Shown here piece by piece: positions 41,312 to 62,669 of a DNA stretch of 64,000 nt. The notes under the pieces are model-generated. The model was not told the origin of the DNA and did no database searches. It saw only the letters and a program-made list of their open reading frames with translations. Made by a program: the position numbers and the translations under genes. The DNA comes from Spirochaetota bacterium (GTDB lineage: Bacteria; Spirochaetota; UBA4802; UBA5550): the NCBI GenBank assembly GCA_041753395.1, contig JBGSUQ010000025.1, positions 268,189-332,188 of the forward strand, given 5' to 3'. Numbering within the stretch: the first letter of the stretch is position 1; every line of letters begins with the position of its first letter.

Positions 41312-42415
41312 TCAGGGGCAGATTACGATACCCTTGGCCCAGAGACATTCGCCGCAGGGTGTCTGGTTCCCGTAGCAGTCGGAAGCTTCAACGGTGCGCT
41401 TGTAGCACATGTCGGGCCGGTAACAATACGCGCAGTCCGGGTAATCATAATAGAGGAAATTATTTCTTAATTCCACGAATGTTCTTTTGTTCCACACCTC
41501 CTCCAGCGTGTCGGCCTTTATGTTTCCCAGTATAAACTTCTCGTGCATCCTTTGCATCCCGGAATAAAAGGCCGGATGGGTATAGGCCAGCTCCGGGCAG
41601 GGGGCGATATCTCCTTCGGCAGTGATAAACATGGTTCCCCGTTCCATGAAGGGACATGTCCGGTTGCCGTGCATTTCCTGGTTTGCCACCCTGAGCGGGT
41701 ATTTCTTCATCTCCCGGCGGAGCAGCCTGCGCAGGTCCGTGTTTTTCCCGAATCCGGTATCGTACAGGATCTCCGATGTCATTGACTTCGTGTATGGATA
41801 CAGGTTGGAAACAATGAATTGATTTATGCCGATCGACCGGCCGTATTCGATCGACCCGGGTATGTGTTGATAGTTTACCCTGGTCGCGACTATCTGCATT
41901 CCTATCATCGGGAGGCTGTTTCCAGAGGCGGCTTTTATTCCGGCCAGTGTCTCTATATTGCTTCTAAATATATCGGCCCTGGCACCGCGACGGATATTCA
42001 AATCAGTTCCGAATATATCATCATCCCATGAAACATGCAATTCGTCAAGAGGGAGGCTGACAAGGTATTCAGACATTTCCCTGGTGAGAAAAGAGGCGTT
42101 CGATACAAGTACGATCTTCGTGTCCAGTTTGCGCAATGACTTCAGGTTCTCCCTGATATGGGGGCTGCTGAGTGCCTCGCCGAAGCCCAGGAGTACGATT
42201 CTCTCCGGACTGGGGGCCTCCAGCATCGGCATCAGTTTTCGCATTAGCCGGGGTGTGAAATGGCATTTCCTGAAATCAACTATCGATTGTCTGATACAGC
42301 TCCGGCACGACAGGTTACAATGCGTTGTAAGCTCTATGTATACCTGCCTGATGCAAGGGGATACCGTCTGCGTTTCAGACCTGAAAACGAGGGAAAAATT
42401 TTCTTTTTTGCTCAT
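41312..42415 (-). CDS. radical SAM enzyme with C-terminal SPASM/twitch Cys-rich domain
   Basis: CNLSCRSC is the CxxxCxxC motif. C-terminal CPFM...CPEL...CAYCYRPDMC...CGECLWAKGIVICP. ATGA overlap with arsC (42412-42415). Last gene of the hgc/ars operon. Confidence 0.8.
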   Translation of the reverse strand: MSKKENFSLVFRSETQTVSPCIRQVYIELTTHCNLSCRSCIRQSIVDFRKCHFTPRLMRKLMPMLEAPSPERIVLLGFGEALSSPHIRENLKSLRKLDTKIVLVSNASFLTREMSEYLVSLPLDELHVSWDDDIFGTDLNIRRGARADIFRSNIETLAGIKAASGNSLPMIGMQIVATRVNYQHIPGSIEYGRSIGINQFIVSNLYPYTKSMTSEILYDTGFGKNTDLRRLLRREMKKYPLRVANQEMHGNRTCPFMERGTMFITAEGDIAPCPELAYTHPAFYSGMQRMHEKFILGNIKADTLEEVWNKRTFVELRNNFLYYDYPDCAYCYRPDMCYKRTVEASDCYGNQTPCGECLWAKGIVICP

Positions 42416-42876: not shown

Positions 42877-43557
42877 CTATTTTCCATTCATGTTTTTTTG
42901 TCTGAGCCGTTCCATTAAATCCTTTGCTTTCTGCATGGCGTCCTGCTCGGATTTATCACTGGCGGCAAGCCAGGGCTGTGTTACCTGCCAGGTCAATTTT
43001 CCCGAATAGGGAGGTTCGGGATACGCGCCGGGATCAAGCAGGGTATTCCCCATGAATTCAACCGGATTTTCCTGAAAACACGACCAAACTGCTTTTCGAA
43101 TTATTTCCGGGTCGCCCTGGAACTGAAGGTCGATGAGACTCACCTGCTCCCTGAACCGTTTAATGAATTCGACAGGGATATTGTACAGATAAGGATGAAG
43201 GGCATCAGTGCCGATTATCTTTTTCTTCTCATCCACGCCATTGGCCATGAGGGCCTTCAGGGCGGAGCCGGTCTGGCGACCGTCCGATTCGGGACCGCCG
43301 AGAATCAAATACCTGATGTTGGGATTGGCTACGAAATTGCAGATCATTTTTTCAAAGCCGATGTTAGGGGTCTGCACCGTGCCGGACAGGGCCGCTCCGG
43401 TTTCCGCGCCGGCGCGAACCAGAAGTTCGATTTCGGGAGGAATCTTGTCCTCGTCAGTTTTGAGAATAATTGCCACTGCGACCGGGGAAAAGTCATTTCC
43501 CCGTATGTAGCGTCCCGGTTCGCAGGGGTAATCCGGATGTGGCGGTACTTTCAGCAT
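42877..43557 (-). CDS. MtrA-like protein (homolog of tetrahydromethanopterin S-methyltransferase subunit A, a corrinoid-binding fold)
   Basis: The stretch NPNIRYLILGGPESDGRQTGSALKALMANGVDEKKKIIGTDALHPYLYNIPVEFIKRFREQVSLIDL aligns by eye with archaeal MtrA (NPNIRYLLV..GHITGQS..NGV....I.GA.GAIPYVENL..EAIARFQEQV..VNL). The position of the MtrA His ligand appears to be Arg. Confidence 0.65.
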   Translation of the reverse strand: MLKVPPHPDYPCEPGRYIRGNDFSPVAVAIILKTDEDKIPPEIELLVRAGAETGAALSGTVQTPNIGFEKMICNFVANPNIRYLILGGPESDGRQTGSALKALMANGVDEKKKIIGTDALHPYLYNIPVEFIKRFREQVSLIDLQFQGDPEIIRKAVWSCFQENPVEFMGNTLLDPGAYPEPPYSGKLTWQVTQPWLAASDKSEQDAMQKAKDLMERLRQKNMNGK

Positions 43558-43614
43558 GTTGTAGTGCTCTCTGGTAGTATGATTTTCAAAATCATACTAC
43601 CGTTTCTTCTCCTA

Positions 43615-44655
43615 TTAAAAATACTTTTTTTTGAAAAATAGTGCCACATTTACAAGGCCGATCATGACCGGAACCTCGACAAGCGGTCCGATAACTGCCG
43701 CAAAAGCGGCCCCTGAATTGATGCCGAAAACAGCGACCGCGACCGCTATGGCGAGCTCAAAATTATTGCTCGCCGCCGTGAACGAGAGGGTCGTCGCAAC
43801 CGGGTATCCGGCGCCAATCTTTTTGCTCATGTAGAAACTAACCAGAAACATGACAATAAAGTAGATCAGCAGCGGTATCGCGATTCGAACGACGTCCATC
43901 GGTATTTTTACAATGTACTCACCCTTCAGGCTGAACATGACCAGTATGGTAAAGAGGAGAGCGATGAGCGTAATGGGACTGATTTTCGGAATGAATTTTG
44001 TCTGGTACCATTCCTTGTTTTTCAGCTTGATAAGCGCGAAGCGTGTGATTATCCCCGCAATAAAGGGAATGCCAAGGTAAATAAATACACTTTTTGCGAT
44101 CTGTCCTATGGTGATGTCAACAATGCTTCCGCTGAGACCGAACAGCGGAGGTAGAATGGTGATAAAAAACCACGCATACACACTGAAGAACAGGACCTGG
44201 AAAATGCTGTTGAAGGCCACGAGCCCGGCAGCGTATTCAGCGTCACCCCTGGCAAGGTCGTTCCACACTATTACCATGGCAATGCAGCGCGCCAGGCCAA
44301 TCATGATGAGACCGACCATGTACTCCGGATAACCGCTCAGGAATGCAAGGGCAAGAAAAAACATCAACACTGGTCCGATGATCCAGTTCTGTACGAGCGA
44401 AAGACCGAGCACTTTCCAGTTTTTGAATACATCGCCCAGCTCCTCGTATTTGACTTTCGCCAGTGGAGGGTACATCATGAGTATAAGACCAATCGCGATG
44501 GGGATGTTCGTGGTTCCTGTCTGGAATTGGCTCCAGAATGCCGCTGTCGAGGGGACAAAATATCCCAGGCCAACGCCGATGGCCATAGCGGCGAAGATCC
44601 ATAGGGTTAAATAGCGGTCGACAAAAGAAAGTTTTTTTGTTATTCCTTCAGTCAT
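43615..44655 (-). CDS. arsB: arsenite efflux transporter, ACR3 family
   Basis: [33 protein letters not shown] is the ACR3 N-terminus. 10 TM helices. AGGGAGAA SD. The ORF-track frame extends to 44757 but ATG 44655 is the likely start. Confidence 0.85.
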
Positions 44656-44669
44656 TATCGTTCTCCCTG

Positions 44670-45368
44670 TTACATTAATTGTATCCTGAAAATATAGAGA
44701 ATGCAGAAATATATGCCAATCATGATGAATAAAATACCGGTGATGCGGCGTCCCCACAATTCAAGCTTCGTGACCGCGTTAAATACGCCTGATAGGTGCC
44801 GGGCGCCAAAGGCTGCCAGGAGCGCGAAGGCCATTACCGGGAGCGCCGTGCCGGCTCCGTAGAGGGCCGGCATGAGCAGGGCCGATTGGTGCCGCACCGC
44901 CAGGGGAATGAGGCTGCCGAAAAAGAGCGCAGCAGATACAGGGCAAAAGGCCAGAGCGAAAACAATTCCCATGACGAACGAAGCAGCAAATATGTTTTTT
45001 TCGGCAAGTCGCTGAAGTGTTGACGTGTCGGTCCCGCTGCCGGCGGGGAGATGTATCAGCTCCAGGAGGAACATACCGGCAACGATGAGAACCGGGCCCA
45101 GGGCTCTGTTCATGTAGCGCTGCAAAAAATCCGACACTGTGGGGATTGACAGAAGGCTTGCGACTAACAGTGCCGCAAGCGCAGTGTAGGCGGTCACCCT
45201 TCCCAGCAGATATAATGCTCCGGTGATAACTACCTTTTTTGTTTCAGCCGCGTTTTTTCCGATATATGACACAGCCGCGATGTTGGTCGCCAGGGGGCAG
45301 GGACTGATGGAGGTGAGAATGCCCAGCCAGATGGCGGCGATGATGCCGGTAGTCAGTTCTCCGTTCAT
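44670..45368 (-). CDS. ccdA: CcdA/DsbD-family transmembrane thiol-disulfide electron transporter
   Basis: [21 protein letters not shown] is the conserved SPCPL motif. ~6 TM helices. ATGA overlap with the upstream gene. Confidence 0.8.
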
Positions 45369-45871
45369 ATGGTTTTCAAATATAATGTTATTTCGTTTTT
45401 GATATAACCGGTGAAAGCCGTTTCGTCCCGGACCAGCTCCCATATCCGGTCGAGGTTTTTCCACCGTACCTGCTTTCCCTTCACGGTATCGACAATTACC
45501 ACGGACTTGGTGAAAAGCTTGAAGTCATCGGCGAAGTGCCTGTTTTCCGGAAATTCAATATTGACCGGCTTCCATGCGATCCGTTGTGTCGCCAATTCCC
45601 TGGAAAAAAAGTTCTTAACGGTTGATTCGGTGAGAGACTCGATCTTCCGGCAGGTGGGGCACCGGAAGGTCGTGTGGAAATAGTAGACCGTCAAGGCACG
45701 CTCCTTTACGGGGATGCTGGTATCCGGCGCGTCCTTATCACTTTTTTGCTGTGTATCAGACGCGGTAATTTCGTCCTTTGCCGGCTTCCGGACTTCCGTT
45801 GCGATCAGGTACATTACGCTGGCCGCGACAAAAATAGACAAAACAATGGTGGCAATTCTTCGTATCTTCAT
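45365..45871 (-). CDS. membrane-anchored thioredoxin-fold protein with CPTC motif (paralog A; uncharacterised family)
   Basis: N-terminal TM helix and a charged linker. The domain VYYFHTTFRCPTCRKIE...WKPVNIEFPENRHFADDFKLFTKSVVIVDT...VRWKNLD...FTGYIKNEI is paralogous to 47921..48502. Confidence 0.6.
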   Translation of the reverse strand: MKIRRIATIVLSIFVAASVMYLIATEVRKPAKDEITASDTQQKSDKDAPDTSIPVKERALTVYYFHTTFRCPTCRKIESLTESTVKNFFSRELATQRIAWKPVNIEFPENRHFADDFKLFTKSVVIVDTVKGKQVRWKNLDRIWELVRDETAFTGYIKNEITLYLKTI

Positions 45872-45901
45872 CAGGTTTTCCTCTATAATAATAGTATCGT
45901 A

Positions 45902-46309
45902 TCAGCAAATTCCGCCGCAGGAACAGCCTGAAGATTTTACTCCGGACGCTGTCGGTTCATTCCTCATAATACGGTCGCTTAGGGAATTAATGATTTCTTC
46001 TGAAGGCAGCGTCTTCCCTTTCTCAATGCCGAAATCGGTCAGGATATAGGAAAGGGGCGTAACGCCGATGCGCTCCAGGGTCTTCTTTGCACATTGGACG
46101 GGGCACCCGTCTATGGTGATATTTACATCAGCCCCTTTTGCCGATTCGACGAACCCGGAAAGGTCCGCCCCGATACCGGCGAGGCAGGTCATGCGCGCGA
46201 ATGCCCGGTCGCGGAGTTTCCGCGACACACCATCAGCGATCTGACCCACGTCGGCAGCGCCGGAACATGAATATAAGAGTTTAACTCCTCCAGTGCAGCA
46301 ATCAGCCAT
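45902..46309 (-). CDS. DGC-domain Cys-rich protein (putative zinc-binding)
   Basis: ITIDGCPVQC is the DGC signature. N-terminal CC, C-terminal CSCGGIC. 135 aa. Confidence 0.65.
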   Translation of the reverse strand: MADCCTGGVKLLYSCSGAADVGQIADGVSRKLRDRAFARMTCLAGIGADLSGFVESAKGADVNITIDGCPVQCAKKTLERIGVTPLSYILTDFGIEKGKTLPSEEIINSLSDRIMRNEPTASGVKSSGCSCGGIC

Positions 46310-46320
46310 GACATTTGCTC

Positions 46321-46551
46321 CTATGATAATAATTTTTTAATCTCATCCAGGGACGGTATTTTTCCGGCCACCTTGACGATGCCGTCCTTCACCAGGGCAG
46401 GCGTCATCATGACGCCGTAGTTGGTGATGGCGTTGATGTCCTTTACGTGATTGATCTGTGCGTCAAGGCCCATCTCCTTCACGGCCTGCCGTGTCAGTTC
46501 TTCAAGCTTCTGGCATTTGAAACAGCCGGTACCCAGTATTTCTAAAAGCAT
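46321..46551 (-). CDS. small thioredoxin-family protein (redox-active disulfide protein 2 / Thioredoxin_3 type)
   Basis: MLLEILGTGCFKCQKLEE...YGVMMTPALVKDGIVKVAGKIPSLDEIKKLL is the characteristic GTGC-K-C family. GGAGAT SD. It sits next to the DUF318 permease, its usual partner. Confidence 0.8.
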   Translation of the reverse strand: MLLEILGTGCFKCQKLEELTRQAVKEMGLDAQINHVKDINAITNYGVMMTPALVKDGIVKVAGKIPSLDEIKKLLS

Positions 46552-46573
46552 GATCAATCTCCTTGTTAAGTTC

Positions 46574-47872
46574 TTAAAATAGAGCTCCAAAAATCATACC
46601 TGATATAGTTGACATAATAACCACGAGGGAGCAGTATACTATGGTCTTTTGTGTACCCAGGTAGCTGCGGATCACCAGCATGCTTGGCAGCGAGAGGGCC
46701 GGACCTGCAAGAAGCAGCGCCAGCGCCGGGCCCTTACCCATGCCGCTGCCGATAAGGCCCTGCACAATGGGGACCTCGGTAAGGGTGGCGAAGTACATGA
46801 AGGCGCCCACTATGGCGGCAAAGAAATTCGCCCGGAGGGAGTTGCCGCCCACCGCTGTCTGTACCCAATCTGACGGAATGATACCCTCATGGCCCGGTCT
46901 TCCCAGGAGGAACCCGGATACCAGCACGCCTACCAGGAGGAGCGGCGTAATCTGCTTGGCAAAGTCCCATGTCGCGGTGAACCATGTGCCGGATTCGCCC
47001 TTATCGGGACCGGTGATTATGGCGAGGCCAATCGCTCCGGCAGCGAAAGGGATTATGGGATACTCGATGAAGAAAATACCAAGGATGATGACAGCCAGCC
47101 CAACCAGTGCGACTTTCCACCATTTTAATTCAAACCAGAAAACCAGGACAATGGCAAACACCGCTGCCGACACCGCGGTTATTATCCATTTGTAGGTGAA
47201 TATAAAATAGAAGATTCCGTCTGCCTCATCCGGCCTGCCCCAGTTGGCGAAAACAAGAATGGCCACCATTGAGGCGAAATAGACCGCGTCTTTCCAGAGG
47301 GGCCTCTTTGTTTCCGGCACCGGCATGTTCATGGCCGCGTTGACCTTGGCTATTTCCTCCTTACGGTAGATGAAGTGCATGATGCCGCCTATGATCACGC
47401 TGAAGGAAACAGCGCCGACGGCCCGGGCGATACCGATATCGGCCCCCAGAATCCGCGCCGTTAGTATGATCGCGAGGACATTGATGGCCGGTCCTGAGTA
47501 GAGGAAGGCGATAGCCGGTCCCAGGCCCGCGCCCATGCGGTAGATGCCGGAGAAGAGGGGAAGCACCGTACAGGAGCAGACCGCCAGGACAGACCCTGAA
47601 ACCGAACCCACACCATAGGCGAGGGCTTTGTTGGCCGTGGGTCCCAGATATTTCATGACCGATTCCTGCCGGACAAATGTCCCTATGGCCCCGGCGATAA
47701 AGAAGGCCGGGATGAGGCAGAGGACCACGTGCTCCCGGGCGTACCACTGGGCGAGGCGCAGGGCTTCAAACACAGCGTTGTCGAATCTCGATGTGCCCAC
47801 GGGCATGTAATAGAGCGCCAGGAAAAATCCGGCGATCCACAGCAAAGGTTTCCATTCGTTTTTCCAGTTCAT
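46574..47872 (-). CDS. DUF318/COG0701 permease (ArsP-like, CSC motif)
   Basis: ~10-12 TM helices with an intramembrane VLAVCSCTVLP (compare the ArsP TPFcSCS motif). Paired with the Thioredoxin_3 protein. Confidence 0.75.
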   Translation of the reverse strand: MNWKNEWKPLLWIAGFFLALYYMPVGTSRFDNAVFEALRLAQWYAREHVVLCLIPAFFIAGAIGTFVRQESVMKYLGPTANKALAYGVGSVSGSVLAVCSCTVLPLFSGIYRMGAGLGPAIAFLYSGPAINVLAIILTARILGADIGIARAVGAVSFSVIIGGIMHFIYRKEEIAKVNAAMNMPVPETKRPLWKDAVYFASMVAILVFANWGRPDEADGIFYFIFTYKWIITAVSAAVFAIVLVFWFELKWWKVALVGLAVIILGIFFIEYPIIPFAAGAIGLAIITGPDKGESGTWFTATWDFAKQITPLLLVGVLVSGFLLGRPGHEGIIPSDWVQTAVGGNSLRANFFAAIVGAFMYFATLTEVPIVQGLIGSGMGKGPALALLLAGPALSLPSMLVIRSYLGTQKTIVYCSLVVIMSTISGMIFGALF

Positions 47873-47920
47873 TCTTTCATGTCTCCGCTAAAGTGTAATC
47901 AAACGCACCGGCAATATATA

Positions 47921-48502
47921 TCAGAGATATGACGCAACTTCTGCCTGAATATACTTCATAAACCCGGCTCTGTCGCCGGCCAGGTTCTCAGCATTGTCGA
48001 GGACCTTCCACTGGATTTTCCTGTTTACCGCCGGAGTAACGATGACGATGGACCTTTTTTTTAGTTTAAAATCATCGGCAAAGTGTTTGTTCCAGGGCTC
48101 ATCCATGTTCACGGATCTCCAGATCAGCTTTCCAGATGCCATCTGGTTTCTGAAACAGGTGTAGAGCGATTGTATCGTGAGACGCTCGAATCTGCGGCAT
48201 GCGGCGTCACGGTCGGTATAATGAAAATAATAGACGATTGATTTGAGATATTCTTTCTGGATTGTTTGCCGGGAATTATCCCGTTTCTCCCCCCTGTCCG
48301 TTTTGGCTTTTTTTTCATCGGCCCCGGTTTTGGGAGGGGAAGATTTTTCATTCCTTGTCTCATCCATCTGCGCTGATTTCTGAGCCGGGGAAGTTTCTTT
48401 TTCCGGCAAGCCCACCCGGCCCATCAGGAAATACAGGGAACCGACGATGATGCAGAGGAGCAGAATGATAATTATTATATTTCTTTTTTTTGTGGTGCTC
48501 AA
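47921..48502 (-). CDS. membrane-anchored thioredoxin-fold-like protein lacking the first active-site Cys (paralog B)
   Basis: IVYYFHYTDRDAACRRFE...WRSVNMDEPWNKHFADDFKLKKRSIVIVTP...IQWKVLD...FMKYIQAEV is paralogous to 45365..45871. Confidence 0.6.
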   Translation of the reverse strand: MSTTKKRNIIIIILLLCIIVGSLYFLMGRVGLPEKETSPAQKSAQMDETRNEKSSPPKTGADEKKAKTDRGEKRDNSRQTIQKEYLKSIVYYFHYTDRDAACRRFERLTIQSLYTCFRNQMASGKLIWRSVNMDEPWNKHFADDFKLKKRSIVIVTPAVNRKIQWKVLDNAENLAGDRAGFMKYIQAEVASYL

Positions 48503-48565
48503 TGTTTACCTGTCTGTTCGAACAGCGGCAAAGCGCTGGATGGACTAATATCCTTGTAAGGGATC

Positions 48566-59052: not shown

Positions 59053-59412
59053 TCATTCGTCTCCCTCATAGGGCGTCGAAGTCCAGGGGAAAATATTTTT
59101 TGATTCTTTTAAGGCGTAGTCTTCTATTTTTTTATACCATGTAATATATTTATCATGTAATACTCTTCCCATATCAGATAACTGATAGCCTCCCGGGGTT
59201 TTATCCAATAATTTATAGCCGAGCACTTCTTCTGTTTTTTTAATCCTACCCCAGGCGGCCCGATATGATATGCCCATTTTCTTGGCGGCGTTTTGAAGTG
59301 ACCCGTATTTTTCAATATTCTCTATCAATTTGGCCCTTCCCGGGCCCAGAATCATACCCTGGTCCGATTCTATCCACGCGTGAATCCGGATTACCGCTTT
59401 TAAATCATTCAT
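59053..59412 (-). CDS. ModE-N-terminal-like wHTH regulator (no TOBE domain)
   Basis: GAGGAA SD. LQNAAKKMGISYRAAWGRIKKTEEVLGYKLLD resembles the ModE/LysR-type HTH. 119 aa. Confidence 0.6.
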   Translation of the reverse strand: MNDLKAVIRIHAWIESDQGMILGPGRAKLIENIEKYGSLQNAAKKMGISYRAAWGRIKKTEEVLGYKLLDKTPGGYQLSDMGRVLHDKYITWYKKIEDYALKESKNIFPWTSTPYEGDE

Positions 59413-59450
59413 GATATTCCTCGGAGTTAAAATAATTCCCCCATGCACCA

Positions 59451-60056
59451 TCACCTGGCGTATGGATCGTCGCCTTTGCAAGCAGGACAGAGGGGCCCGT
59501 CCTTGATTTTAAACGCTTCACCGCATGACGCGCAATTCGCGATACGGCTGCCATGCGCGTGACCGGCAATCAATTCAGGCTTGATTTTTATTTTTTTCAT
59601 ACTGCACAGCTCTGCGCCCGCTTCCTTGATCTGCGAAATGAGAAGCGGATAATCCTGCTCCTTTTTGGGTTTGAGCTTATAGAACCAGTTTTTAATTTCT
59701 GGCCATCTTTCAATCTTTGAGGAATCGACAAACACCCTGATCCCCTCGCCGGTGCTTTTTTCATACAGGCTGATCGCAAATCTGCTGAAATTCATGACCC
59801 GCAGCCACCCGTTGCCGATGGTGCAGGGGGTCAGGAGCTGTATCGCGTCAGGAAGGCAGGTTTTCGTTTCCGATATGGCATCGAAGAATTCCCCATCGGG
59901 CAGGTTTTTCAGGGCGAGGTCCACCATGAAACCGCCTATCAGCAGCCCCGGTGCCAGGCTCCCGTGAAATTCTTTCACGATACGGATATAATCTTCCAGG
60001 TTGTATGTATCCATTTTGTTGTCATAGGTCAGTCTTCTGATTGATTTCTGTTCCAT
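59451..60056 (-). CDS. FmdE/FwdE-domain protein with C-terminal zinc ribbon
   Basis: GGAG SD. FmdE-like motif HGSLAPGLLIGGFMVDLAL. C-terminal CASCGEAF...CPAC. It sits in the mod operon, a common context for this family. Confidence 0.65.
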   Translation of the reverse strand: MEQKSIRRLTYDNKMDTYNLEDYIRIVKEFHGSLAPGLLIGGFMVDLALKNLPDGEFFDAISETKTCLPDAIQLLTPCTIGNGWLRVMNFSRFAISLYEKSTGEGIRVFVDSSKIERWPEIKNWFYKLKPKKEQDYPLLISQIKEAGAELCSMKKIKIKPELIAGHAHGSRIANCASCGEAFKIKDGPLCPACKGDDPYAR

Positions 60057-60169
60057 GTTTTTCTCCGTTAAGTTCATTAGTATTGTTGCATTAAAAACAA
60101 TGCACTGCCGTGGCCTTGAATGATATGCATATCTGATTCCCGGCCTTAATGTCAAGTTCGATCATAGTA

Positions 60170-61225
60170 TCACCCCAACCTTCTGAACGCCGTGGCCTTT
60201 ATCGCCGCATAAATTTTTATTCCCTTCTTTATACCAAGATCTTCGGCAGACTGCCTGACAATCTCCGCGATAAGATGTTCTCGCCCGCATTCCAGCTCCA
60301 CGCCCAGCCTGCCTCCTGTTTCGAAAACATCGGACACCCTGCAGTTGAGCAGATTACGGGCGCTTATCGCTTCAGGATGTCGCTTGCAGAGAATAATCTC
60401 CGACGATGAAAGTTCGAAAAGGGCCTCGGGTTGGTCGTCGCCTGCAGAAATAAGCAACTGCTGATCTCCCCATTTGTATACGGGCAGTCCATGGATTCGG
60501 TGGGGGCGTCTGAGCTTGAGGAGGTTAATATAATTGGCCGCGTGATCACCCATGTGGATCCGCGCCAATTCCTCCACTGTCATCAGCCCGGTAATTTGCC
60601 CGCGATCCAGGGTCAGCACTTTCTCTGTCATGATCCTCGTTTCAATCAGTGAATGCGAGATGAAGAGATACGGTATGCCGAATACCTCGCAGGCATTTTT
60701 CAGAAAAGGAATGATCTGGTATTTCAGATTATCATCAAGCCCCGACAGCGGTTCGTCCATTATGAGCAGCCGCGGGTTGGAAAGAACAGCCCGGCCGATG
60801 GCGACTCTCTGGCGCTCGCCGCCGGAGAGGTTCCCTACTCCCCGGTTAAGCAGTTGACCGAGTTGCAGGACCGATATCAAACTGTCCAGTTTTATTGTCC
60901 GATTTTGCTGGGGGCAACGCCGGTAACCGTACAGGAGGTTGCGTTTAACGCTCATATGCGGGAAAAGATGGGGCCGTTGGAAGACCATGCCGATGCGGCG
61001 GTGCGGGACCGCTAGGTTCATCCCGTTCCGGCTATCGAAAATGGTTTCCCCATCAAGAAGGATAACACCCTGATCCGGACGATGTAATCCCGCAAGGACC
61101 CCCATCAGGGTTGATTTCCCGCTCCCCGATGGCCCGAAGAGACCGATACGATTGCCCTCGAGATCAAAATCGGCATCAAGTTGAAATGCGCCGAACTGCT
61201 TATGTATGCCCATGCTCAGTTTCAT
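60170..61225 (-). CDS. modC: molybdate ABC transporter ATP-binding protein with C-terminal TOBE domain(s)
   Basis: Walker A GPSGSGKST, LSGGERQRVAIGRA and a TOBE-like tail. The start is 1 nt after the modB stop. Confidence 0.85.
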   Translation of the reverse strand: MKLSMGIHKQFGAFQLDADFDLEGNRIGLFGPSGSGKSTLMGVLAGLHRPDQGVILLDGETIFDSRNGMNLAVPHRRIGMVFQRPHLFPHMSVKRNLLYGYRRCPQQNRTIKLDSLISVLQLGQLLNRGVGNLSGGERQRVAIGRAVLSNPRLLIMDEPLSGLDDNLKYQIIPFLKNACEVFGIPYLFISHSLIETRIMTEKVLTLDRGQITGLMTVEELARIHMGDHAANYINLLKLRRPHRIHGLPVYKWGDQQLLISAGDDQPEALFELSSSEIILCKRHPEAISARNLLNCRVSDVFETGGRLGVELECGREHLIAEIVRQSAEDLGIKKGIKIYAAIKATAFRRLG

Positions 61226-61226
61226 G

Positions 61227-61913
61227 TCAGACCACCCTTCCCGTGCGTCTGCCGATCCATTCATGGAAAATGAGCACCGCCACGGAGATGGTGATGGACA
61301 CGCTGCACAGCGCAATGGCCATGAAATCGCCACCGGGGGAACTGACATATTCATAGATCGCAAGCGGGATTGTCTGAGTGACACCCGGTATGTTACCGGC
61401 TACAATGATCGTGGCCCCGAATTCACCCAGGCCGCGGGCAAACATGAGCACGGATCCGGCAATGATCCCCCGCAGGGAAAGCGGCAGGATCACCGTTATT
61501 ACGGTATCAAGCCAGCCGGCCCCGAGGGTGCGCGAGGCCTGGATGAGCCCCCGGTCGATCATCTCCATCCCGATGCGCATCGACCTGACCATCAGGGGAA
61601 AGCCCACCACCGCCGTGGCGATCACCGCCGCCTTCCATGTAAAAATAAGTTCGAGGCCCAGGGGCTGGAGTATGGTCCTGCCGATCCACCCGTGCCGGCC
61701 CAATAGCAGCAGGAGGAGATATCCGACCACGACGGGCGGCAGTGTCAGGGGGAGATTGACGATACCGTCCAGGACGATCCTGCCCCGGAATTTATGAAAC
61801 GTCATGAGATAGGCCACGGCAAAACCGAAGGGTAACGACAGCACGGTGGCCGTGGTGGCCACCTTGACTGAAAGCAGTATTGCCGAATAATCGGCTGGAG
61901 TGAAACTGAGCAT
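61227..61913 (-). CDS. modB: molybdate ABC transporter permease
   Basis: ModB/CysTW-like 5-TM permease containing the EAA-loop region (ASRTLGAGWLDTVITVILPL). Confidence 0.85.
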   Translation of the reverse strand: MLSFTPADYSAILLSVKVATTATVLSLPFGFAVAYLMTFHKFRGRIVLDGIVNLPLTLPPVVVGYLLLLLLGRHGWIGRTILQPLGLELIFTWKAAVIATAVVGFPLMVRSMRIGMEMIDRGLIQASRTLGAGWLDTVITVILPLSLRGIIAGSVLMFARGLGEFGATIIVAGNIPGVTQTIPLAIYEYVSSPGGDFMAIALCSVSITISVAVLIFHEWIGRRTGRVV

Positions 61914-61919
61914 ACAGCG

Positions 61920-62669
61920 TTATTTTACCGCAAAGCCATATTTGGATAGAACCTTCTTTGCACGGGCGGATTGCATGAACTTAAAGAAGGCTGCCGCTTC
62001 GTTTTTCTTCGCGCCGGTTACGGTGAGCGCCACAATATACGTTATCCGCGGGTATAACTCCTGCGGCATTATAAAAAGGATCTTTACATTCCTTGCCATG
62101 ATCCCAGCATCAGTCTTATACACAAAAGCGCCGTCGACCTCTCCGCGTTCGGCATACATCAGGCATTCACGGACATCTTTCGCCATCACCAGTTTATCTT
62201 TAAGCTTCTTATCAATATTTGCCTTCTTGAAGGCCTCCATTGCGTATTGGCCGGCGGGCACATTCTTCGGGCTGCCGATAGCTATCTTTTTCAGTTTGAC
62301 CACATCGTCCAGGCTGCCTGACTTCAGCTCCGGCCTGCCTACAAAGACCAGTTCATTGAAGGCGAATGCTGCAATTGCGTTGGCATCAACAATTTTCTTT
62401 TCTTTCAAATAATCAACCCATTCGAAATTGGCAGAGAAGAAAACATCACAGGGAGCGCCGTTTTCTATCTGCTTTGCCAGGGCCCCGGAGCCGCCAAGGT
62501 TTCTCCGGAATGAAACAGTGGTATTCTTTTTAGCAAAGTCATTAGAGAGTGCCGTGACGACCTCCTTCAGGCTGGCCGCAACGGAGAGGTTAACATCAGC
62601 AGCAAAGATTGGTCCGACTGATAGGACGAAGAAAAACAAGCTCAAAATCAGTCTGATGATTTCCTTCAT
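61920..62669 (-). CDS. modA: molybdate (possibly tungstate) ABC transporter periplasmic substrate-binding protein
   Basis: Signal peptide then ModA-fold motifs (VSAASLKEV..., GSGALAKQIENGAPCDVFFSA). AGAGGTGA SD. Confidence 0.8.
   Translation of the reverse strand: MKEIIRLILSLFFFVLSVGPIFAADVNLSVAASLKEVVTALSNDFAKKNTTVSFRRNLGGSGALAKQIENGAPCDVFFSANFEWVDYLKEKKIVDANAIAAFAFNELVFVGRPELKSGSLDDVVKLKKIAIGSPKNVPAGQYAMEAFKKANIDKKLKDKLVMAKDVRECLMYAERGEVDGAFVYKTDAGIMARNVKILFIMPQELYPRITYIVALTVTGAKKNEAAAFFKFMQSARAKKVLSKYGFAVK

Follow-up and report, generated by a model that had tools for sequence, protein, structure and literature searches.

A small clade of radical-SAM/SPASM enzymes linked to ars operons, with a possible role in arsenic metabolism

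Introduction

To our knowledge, the radical S-adenosylmethionine (SAM) enzymes of arsenic metabolism number two, ArsS of arsenosugar biosynthesis and ArsL, the arsinothricin synthase, both of which build C-As bonds. ArsL is characterized by a non-canonical SAM cleavage that gives a 3-amino-3-carboxypropyl radical. Trivalent organoarsenicals are detoxified by other enzymes of ars operons, the C-As lyase ArsI and the organoarsenical oxidase ArsH, whose products feed ArsC and ACR3. Both of these need O2 and would not be expected to function where soils, sediments or digesters are anoxic, and radical-SAM enzymes often substitute for O2-dependent enzymes in anaerobes. In the SPASM/twitch enzymes, auxiliary clusters take an electron from the substrate radical. 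Two reports describe how ArsS and ArsL form C-As bonds by the addition of SAM-derived radicals to As(III) (PMC8552651; bioRxiv 10.1101/2024.02.01.577332).

Here we report on a radical-SAM/SPASM gene (rSAM) in a stretch of 64,000 nucleotides, hereafter the window, from a Spirochaetota bacterium (GenBank assembly GCA_041753395.1, contig JBGSUQ010000025.1, positions 268,189 to 332,188 of the forward strand). Like ArsS and ArsL, its product is a radical-SAM enzyme encoded in an arsenic gene cluster. Sequence comparisons place it in a small, apparently undescribed clade, which would add to ArsS and ArsL a third, apparently unrelated type of radical-SAM enzyme associated with ars genes, and we tentatively suggest that the members of this clade have an arsenic-related job.

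The rSAM gene and its protein

The gene was identified from its open reading frame (ORF) and from Pfam and NCBIfam matches. Its features are as follows.

41312..42415, minus strand: rSAM/SPASM gene, 367 aa, member of the ars-linked clade
42350..42415, minus strand: N-terminal extension, residues 1-22, with the family-specific motif F.W..R.E.Q.VS (alignment against the outgroup)
42296..42319, minus strand: C33x3C37x2C40, predicted to bind the radical-SAM [4Fe-4S] cluster, invariant in 41 family members and found in 97% of the outgroup
42167..42169, minus strand: codon 83, AGC (Ser), which is Cys in 93% of the family
41318..41656, minus strand: SPASM region with nine invariant Cys (C254...C366), from PF13186 and invariant alignment columns

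In addition to the CX3CX2C motif, the protein contains a GFGE SAM-binding motif, in which G79-E80 is invariant across the family alignment. PF13186 (SPASM) covers residues 254-332 with 45.7 bits (cutoff 21.5), and the SPASM region terminates in the signature PCGECLWAKGIVxCP. The Radical_SAM model PF04055 reaches 29.3 bits, marginally below its cutoff of 29.5. An AlphaFold (AF2) model was confident (pLDDT 86, pTM 0.88), and in a Foldseek search it matched SuiB, BlsE, SkfB, anSME, MoaA, DesII and PqqE with TM scores of about 0.55-0.6, so that the predicted fold resembles generic SPASM/twitch enzymes only. The best PDB match by sequence was BtrN (E 8e-14). Since the cluster motif, the GFGE motif and the fold concur, we accept the radical-SAM class despite the PF04055 score, and the predicted product is a genuine radical-SAM/SPASM iron-sulfur enzyme, as an earlier note on the window had recognized.

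That note counted seven C-terminal Cys, and the family alignment corrects this number to nine invariant ones: C254, C273, C328, C331, C337, C347, C354, C357 and C366. The canonical seven-Cys SPASM motif, which holds two auxiliary [4Fe-4S] clusters, reads CX9-15GX4C ... CX2CX5CX3C ... C. In the rSAM protein the spacing is C254-x13-G268-x4-C273 ... C328x2C331x5C337-x9-C347 ... C354x2C357 ... C366, which differs from the canonical motif by x9 in place of x3 and by two additional Cys.

A small discrete clade

A homologue search covering 5.8 billion proteins returned 83 homologues with 37-76% identity, mostly from metagenome-assembled genomes (MAGs) of Spirochaetes, after which the scores dropped from 274 to 140 bits. 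When 1.84 billion representatives were searched exhaustively with a profile, about 10 (50% identity) reached at least 440 bits; a few intermediates came next, followed by a continuum of about 460 relatives (E <= 1e-30). Based on these score gaps, the window protein is assigned to a small discrete clade, mostly of Spirochaetota. No Pfam or NCBIfam model names this clade, and its members carry in their sources the label 'SPASM domain-containing protein' or generic radical-SAM labels only. Our literature search found no description of the clade, on which the passages of related papers that came up are silent.

The best NCBIfam models were TIGR04317 ('tungsten cofactor oxidoreductase radical SAM maturase'), with a full-length collinear match of 252.7 bits against a cutoff of 380, and TIGR04311 (rSAM_Geo_metal, 'radical SAM/SPASM putative metalloenzyme maturase'), which matched over the full length, in two pieces, with 195.7 bits (cutoff 400); an insert of about 60 residues present in TIGR04311 members is absent from the window protein. 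Both scores lie below the curated cutoffs, so the protein is a member of neither family. Against TIGR04317, two other members of our clade score 225 (P0066) and 260 bits (P0082), while the outgroup protein P0084 passes the cutoff with 387 bits; this true TIGR04317 member adjoins a molybdopterin oxidoreductase gene. The clade and the two named families have in common the CX3CX2C motif, the nine C-terminal Cys and a PCGxCLW...CP tail. The clade differs from them in its own N-terminal extension, in about 20 family-specific residues including Cys83, and in its neighbours, which are ars genes instead of the molybdenum/tungsten (Mo/W)-pterin oxidoreductase genes that accompany TIGR04317-type genes. 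The 'maturase' names of these relatives were given by genomic context only, and we know of no experimental characterization of them; a look through the literature for TIGR04317-type proteins yielded nothing of use.

The clade-specific residues are A81, C83, D132, E275, Y278, A282, Y284, H291, F320, D327, R340 and E356. Polar residues and one Cys among them (C83, D132, E275, Y278, Y284, H291, R340 and E356) adjoin the SAM motif or sit in the SPASM loop. Q16 and V18, which the outgroup lacks, show at least 96% conservation in the family. Cys83, three residues past GFGE, is the sole family-specific Cys, and it is present in the deepest branch and absent from the outgroup. All twelve Cys, the nine C-terminal ones included, are common to the non-ars outgroup, and we therefore consider them ancestral Fe-S ligands and not arsenic ligands. 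An arsenic-binding Cys triad in the C-terminus was ruled out, as the nine Cys are equally conserved in non-ars relatives.

The earlier note held the protein to be closer to anSME or peptide-modifying maturases than to the known arsenic radical-SAM enzymes, and it proposed a profile search to assign a SPASM subfamily. The distance to ArsS stands: the ArsS model TIGR04167 gives 20.3 bits against a cutoff of 300 and matches residues 22-120 of the radical-SAM core only. ArsS has its own Cys-rich C-terminal domain and an arsM neighbour, whereas no ArsM-like gene was found in the rSAM loci. No model named ArsL was among the NCBIfam matches, and it is the profile score that sets the protein apart from ArsS. 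The proposed affinity was revised, since the nearest families are TIGR04317 and TIGR04311 and the protein is neither anSME nor PqqE. It is similar to anSME, BtrN, SuiB, SkfB and PqqE in overall fold (Foldseek TM 0.5-0.6), whereas the likeness in sequence is confined to generic motifs, and it has neither a recognition domain nor a peptide gene.

Linkage of the clade to ars genes

In the window, the rSAM gene is the last of a cluster that reads, on one strand, hgcA, hgcB, arsR, arsF-like, arsP, arsE-like thioredoxin, DGC, arsF-like, arsG/DsbD-like, acr3, mtrA-like, arsC and rSAM; a convergent chemoreceptor gene comes next. Ten further ars or ars-linked genes thus lie on the same strand between hgcAB and rSAM, and the earlier description of the gene as the 3' end of an hgc/ars operon agrees with this order.

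We then scanned one genome per GTDB species and obtained 33 loci (counts of 34 loci include the window). Most are from Spirochaetota and Leptospirales MAGs, and the others from MAGs labelled Smithellaceae, Syntrophaceae, Desulfobacterales and Deltaproteobacteria and from one Cytophagia MAG. ACR3, ArsC, ArsP, ArsR or ArsE adjoins rSAM on the same strand in 25 of the 33 loci, and in seven loci the nearest 10 kb are free of ars genes. The gene order varies: ArsC-rSAM spaced by -4 to +12 nt, ACR3-(0-24 nt)-rSAM-ArsC, MtrA-rSAM, ArsE-rSAM and rSAM-ArsR-ACR3. In a neighbour-joining tree, ars contexts occur in all subclades and the ars-free loci form a few small branches. A scan of metagenomes gave 44 loci, 30 with ars genes, and only two of the 14 without them have long flanks; as many of these loci duplicate genome loci, the two counts are not independent. 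Minimal operons in the metagenomes read hgcA-arsR-rSAM and hgcA-arsR-arsC-rSAM. DsbD plus thioredoxin, universal stress protein, ArsA and VKOR-DsbA also recur as neighbours, and many loci besides the window carry organoarsenical genes (arsP, arsE/F/G). No universal partner protein was found across the rSAM loci, and no Mo/W enzyme gene recurs within 10 kb of rSAM in the 33 loci.

By the operational definition of an ars-operon gene, conserved same-strand linkage across lineages to arsR, arsC, acr3 or arsP, the rSAM gene is one. The linkage survives rearrangement, taxonomic distance and domain fusion, which speaks for a function tied to arsenic. The earlier note had asked whether the protein might belong to a housekeeping family with an unrelated neighbourhood elsewhere; the ars context proved to be conserved family-wide. 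The same note had suggested that genomic co-occurrence with arsC and an mtrA-like gene be analysed, and of the two only the ars linkage is general: MtrA-like genes stand beside rSAM in five of the 34 loci (the window, L001, L002, L004 and L005), as partners in one sublineage only. The hgcAB linkage is confined to one Spirochaete sublineage, and the DGC, thioredoxin-fold, MtrA-like and HgcAB proteins are not general partners.

Tandem rSAM paralogues, which belong to two subclades, are present in L002 (8781..13593), L004 (6120..8370), L047 and L071. Two copies are intact in L002 and L047, each of which has a third that is apparently split or frameshifted after the reductase gene. Since tandem copies are typical of detoxifying enzymes that diversify their substrates, we count them in favour of an arsenic-related role.

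The arsC overlap and the cluster in the window

The genes that accompany rSAM in the window are listed below.

42412..42415, minus strand: ATGA in which the stop codon of arsC and the start codon of rSAM overlap, read directly and recurring in L001 and L042
42412..42867, minus strand: arsC, low-molecular-weight protein tyrosine phosphatase (LMW-PTP), thioredoxin-coupled type (PF01451; TIGR02691 126.8 bits, below the cutoff of 174.3)
42877..43557, minus strand: mtrA-like gene, product putatively corrinoid-binding by family (PF04208 122 bits; NF002126 188 bits, above the cutoff of 161)
43615..44757, minus strand: ACR3 arsenite efflux permease (TIGR00832 455 bits, residues 43-372)
44670..48910, minus strand: arsG-like, arsF-like, DGC, arsE-like, arsP, arsF-like and arsR genes (NCBIfam, Pfam; ArsR ORF)
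45365..45871 and 47921..48502, minus strand: the two ArsF-like paralogues (NCBIfam, Pfam)
48922..49245, minus strand: hgcB, 107 aa (two ferredoxin motifs, C-terminal CC)
49230..50429, minus strand: hgcA (NVWCAAGK cap-helix motif, N-terminal CC)

At the arsC/rSAM junction the minus strand reads AAC AAT CC-ATGA-GC, in which the arsC stop TGA occupies 42414..42412 and the rSAM ATG 42415..42413. Met1 and the N-terminal 22 residues of the rSAM protein are conserved across the family, which supports the annotated start. The same overlap is present in L001, and in L042 an aldolase-fused homologue overlaps an ArsR-ArsC fusion gene by ATGA; because it recurs in this distant homologue as well as in L001, the overlap is not a chance feature of the window. 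These sequences support translational coupling of arsC and rSAM. The earlier note had gone further and spoken of stoichiometric co-expression, and stoichiometry is more than an ATGA overlap can show. Only a weak promoter match (9/12) was found at the junction, in a scan that was overall not above chance, and no intrinsic terminator or stable hairpin was detected 3' of the rSAM gene (z-score 0.01, no inverted repeat).

ArsC has a CX5R P-loop and two downstream Cys. The listed ACR3 ORF begins with GTG and overlaps the arsG-like gene by 88 nt; as the TIGR00832 match begins only at residue 43, the true start is probably an internal Met (MTEGITKK...) downstream of the GTG. A complete hgcA-hgcB pair heads the cluster, with hgcB overlapping the hgcA stop by 16 nt, and hgcA-arsR synteny is kept in L001, L003, L005, L057 and L060. 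The N-terminal Cys-Cys of HgcA ('NCCAPP') is the non-selenocysteine form of the CU motif, which is discussed in bioRxiv 10.1101/2022.07.06.499078.

An aldolase-fused deep branch

In a deep branch of the family (P0093, P0354-P0361), which includes KSB1 and Cytophagia MAGs, a class-II-aldolase/adducin domain is fused N-terminal to the rSAM-SPASM unit, and the family N-terminal motif persists as the linker. The loci with this form are given here.

L042/L043, 6001..7656; L044; L045; L046; L032, 9296..11047; L078: fusion-form loci

Ars islands were present in all four fusion-clade contexts that we read. The fused aldolase domain is degenerate: GVMA stands in place of the GNxS phosphate motif, and the third metal-binding His is missing (NLG/NYG versus NHG). 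No stand-alone aldolase gene was found in the other rSAM loci. With these motifs lost and no stand-alone aldolase, we dropped the Rosetta-stone inference from the Aldolase_II fusion to sugar-phosphate/5-deoxypentulose and arsenosugar chemistry, of which the fusion remains a weak hint. A small Cys-rich DUF6951 protein precedes the fusion gene in L032, L044 and L045, and its confinement to these loci rules it out as a partner.

Proposed function and alternative explanations

We propose that the rSAM protein belongs to an undescribed ars-operon-linked radical-SAM/SPASM clade with an arsenic-related job, a proposal to which we give slightly less than an even chance. In the proposed mechanism, the [4Fe-4S] cluster held by C33, C37 and C40 would reductively cleave SAM to yield the 5'-deoxyadenosyl radical, and the nine C-terminal Cys would hold two auxiliary [4Fe-4S] clusters that pass the extra electron on, in the manner of other SPASM enzymes. 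As substrate we envisage a small trivalent arsenical that ArsC, the co-translated reductase, would provide, and the inorganic or modified product would then be exported by ACR3 or ArsP. A small or ubiquitous substrate is favoured because there is no universal partner, conserved small ORF or recognition domain.

The version of this proposal that we prefer, unlikely as it is when taken singly, is an O2-independent oxidative cleavage or oxidation of an organoarsenical, which would make the enzyme an anaerobic counterpart of ArsI/ArsH. The folds of ArsI and ArsH are unrelated to that of the rSAM protein and the likeness would be one of function; the rSAM carriers are MAGs of lineages that we take to be anaerobic. 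We favour this version because the window operon (arsP, arsE, two arsF, arsG) and many others carry organoarsenical genes, because a position of the rSAM gene between acr3 and arsC suits a pathway that yields inorganic arsenic, and because radical-SAM enzymes so often replace O2-dependent ones in anaerobes. A further reason is that anaerobic demethylation is still unexplained: its mechanism is described as unresolved in a 2026 preprint, with arsI not detected in methanogenic paddy soil. Our second choice, which we rate as clearly unlikely, is that a radical adds to As(III) and a C-As bond is formed, in analogy to ArsS/ArsL; this has chemical precedent, and a SPASM electron sink would suit the oxidation of an As(IV) radical adduct.

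Several points weigh against an arsenic-related role. The ars-free loci have been given above. The window protein itself has Ser83 in place of the family-specific Cys, with a codon (AGC) one base from TGC, and the sequences contain no arsenic-specific thiol triad of the ArsR/ArsM kind. We know of no radical-SAM C-As lyase, which weakens the cleavage version, and the C-As-forming version is weakened because neither arsM nor another biosynthetic gene accompanies rSAM. Moreover, most characterized SPASM enzymes modify peptides or proteins, and the closest named families carry protein or cofactor maturase labels, given by context.

These last two points lead to the alternative that the enzyme is a maturase or repair enzyme that modifies a protein or a pterin/metal cofactor, as is presumed for the TIGR04317/TIGR04311 relatives. 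Candidate targets would be ArsC or ACR3, one or the other of which is adjacent in about 25 of 34 loci, or an arsenite-poisoned Mo/W-pterin or dithiol cofactor, and under ArsR control the enzyme would be made when arsenic is present. TIGR04317, with its full-length match, and TIGR04311 are the best profiles, all nine SPASM Cys are common to the clade of these two families, and a true TIGR04317 member (P0084) has a molybdopterin oxidoreductase gene as its neighbour. However, the protein falls below both curated cutoffs in a clearly separated clade, the label of the relatives is itself a context-based guess, and neither a recurrent Mo/W enzyme gene nor a universal neighbour or target gene accompanies rSAM. 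The ArsC encoded next to rSAM belongs to the ordinary thioredoxin-type LMW-PTPs and has its catalytic Cys complete, and we know of no such ArsC that needs maturation. We regard this alternative as unlikely, though a serious one. Far less credible is a peptide maturase of the anSME, PqqE or sactisynthase type that acts on a small precursor encoded nearby (a ribosomally synthesized and post-translationally modified peptide), despite the SPASM domain and structural neighbours that include SuiB, SkfB, anSME and PqqE. The CX3CX2C motif begins at residue 33 and leaves no room for an N-terminal recognition domain, the gaps to neighbouring genes are 0-24 nt in many loci, no anSME model is among the 25 NCBIfam families at E 0.01, and peptide-maturase models reach at most about 37 bits. 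When we clustered 1140 small ORFs within 1.5 kb of rSAM across the loci, the recurring ones were only shadow frames inside ACR3, ArsC, MtrA and reductase genes, so that the nearby precursor-peptide ORF for which the earlier note had suggested a search was not found. We consider this explanation very improbable.

In a corrinoid partnership, rSAM would team up with the MtrA-like protein, HgcAB or both to transfer methyl groups to or from arsenic in a cobalamin-dependent manner, much as a B12-dependent radical-SAM methylase split into separate proteins. In favour of this, the mtrA-like gene is directly upstream of arsC-rSAM in the window and of rSAM in L002, L004 and L005, hgcAB heads the operon in the window and in the five loci with hgcA-arsR synteny, a protein of the corrinoid iron-sulfur protein (CFeSP) type fills the MtrA-like slot in other loci (ACR3-X-ArsC-rSAM), and an ArsM-like gene stands beside an MtrA-like gene in L035/L036. 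Against it, many members of the family are accompanied by arsC and/or acr3 only; the rSAM protein has no B12-binding domain, and the MtrA-like family is very large (2850 hits at 1e-15) and occurs in many contexts without rSAM. As an obligate partner of rSAM, the MtrA-like protein is ruled out by these facts together with its presence in only five loci, and the partnership as a whole appears distinctly improbable. Hardly more probable is an incidental linkage, by which a gene of arsenic-unrelated function would have travelled with ars islands within a single bacterial lineage. One phylum does supply most members, ars neighbours are missing from seven of 33 loci, and in L016/L017 rSAM has the peptidase and chemoreceptor neighbours of the window without ars genes. 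Against this, the linkage persists through rearrangements and in Smithellaceae, Syntrophaceae, Deltaproteobacteria, KSB1 and Cytophagia MAGs, the independently fused form is also ars-linked, and the arsC overlap recurs in distant members.

Within the arsenic-related reading, the boldest form is that the clade is the missing O2-independent degrader of organoarsenicals, a radical-SAM C-As lyase or demethylase, to which ArsC would hand over trivalent methyl- or aryl-arsenicals and from which the released As(III) would be pumped out by ACR3. We think this rather unlikely. If true, it would account for the anaerobic demethylation of arsenic, a process that bears on arsenic in rice, in habitats without detected arsI. 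A third, SPASM-type lineage wired into the arsR/arsC/acr3 module of anaerobes from several phyla points to an arsenic transformation left uncounted in current catalogues of ars genes and in metagenome surveys. The family is small, carries the signature GEALCNP ... PCGECLWAKGIVxCP and can be cloned with its own arsC, so that the proposal is directly testable.

Other observations in the window and in related loci

The two ArsF-like proteins together with the ArsE-like, ArsG-like, ArsP and DGC proteins of the window amount to a full set of nitroaromatic/organoarsenical resistance homologues, a set which we believe has otherwise been described from Shewanella. Further away, at 59053..62669 on the minus strand, an unprofiled reading of the ORF translations suggests ModA-, ModB- and ModC-like proteins, a ModE-like regulator and an FwdE-like protein, which we take to be a set for molybdate/tungstate uptake. 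It sits 17 kb from rSAM and is relevant only since the nearest relatives of rSAM are linked to Mo/W enzymes; no linkage of such a set to rSAM was seen in the other loci.

A flavoprotein resembling coenzyme A (CoA)-disulfide reductase (TIGR03385, 370 bits, below the cutoff of 579) directly adjoins rSAM in the MtrA sublineage. It is found in L002-L005 and L047-L053, recurs in the fusion clade (L045, L081), and may be a reductant or a persulfide-handling partner. The protein in the MtrA-like slot mentioned above has 272 aa and a C-terminal CFeSP/RnfB-type [4Fe-4S] domain (PF04060). Its gene lies between acr3 and arsC in L009, L011, L014, L058 and L059, and elsewhere in the ars cluster in L031 and L071.

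Between acr3 and the mtrA-like gene of the window, at 43573..43601, there is a perfect 14+14 nt palindrome (GGTAGTATGATTTT c AAAATCATACTACC), which overlaps a weak promoter-like -10 on the minus strand. Its exact sequence is not conserved, and repeats of the ATGAT...ATCAT type precede the mtrA-like gene in L002, L004 and L005. The palindrome may be an operator or an internal promoter of an mtrA-arsC-rSAM sub-operon.

The 120 MtrA-like matches listed span several phyla and share 68-91% identity with the MtrA-like protein of the window. In a Deltaproteobacteria MAG (L036), an MtrA-like gene directly follows a gene for an ArsM-like methyltransferase with GCGNP and CLGG motifs, and a metagenome contig (L035) matches this arrangement.

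L035, 4196..5693; L036, 1696..3193: ArsM-like/MtrA-like pairs

In L039 an MtrA-like gene lies 2 kb from arsR-acr3. The MtrA-like protein may itself be a corrinoid protein with a link of its own to arsenic methyl chemistry.

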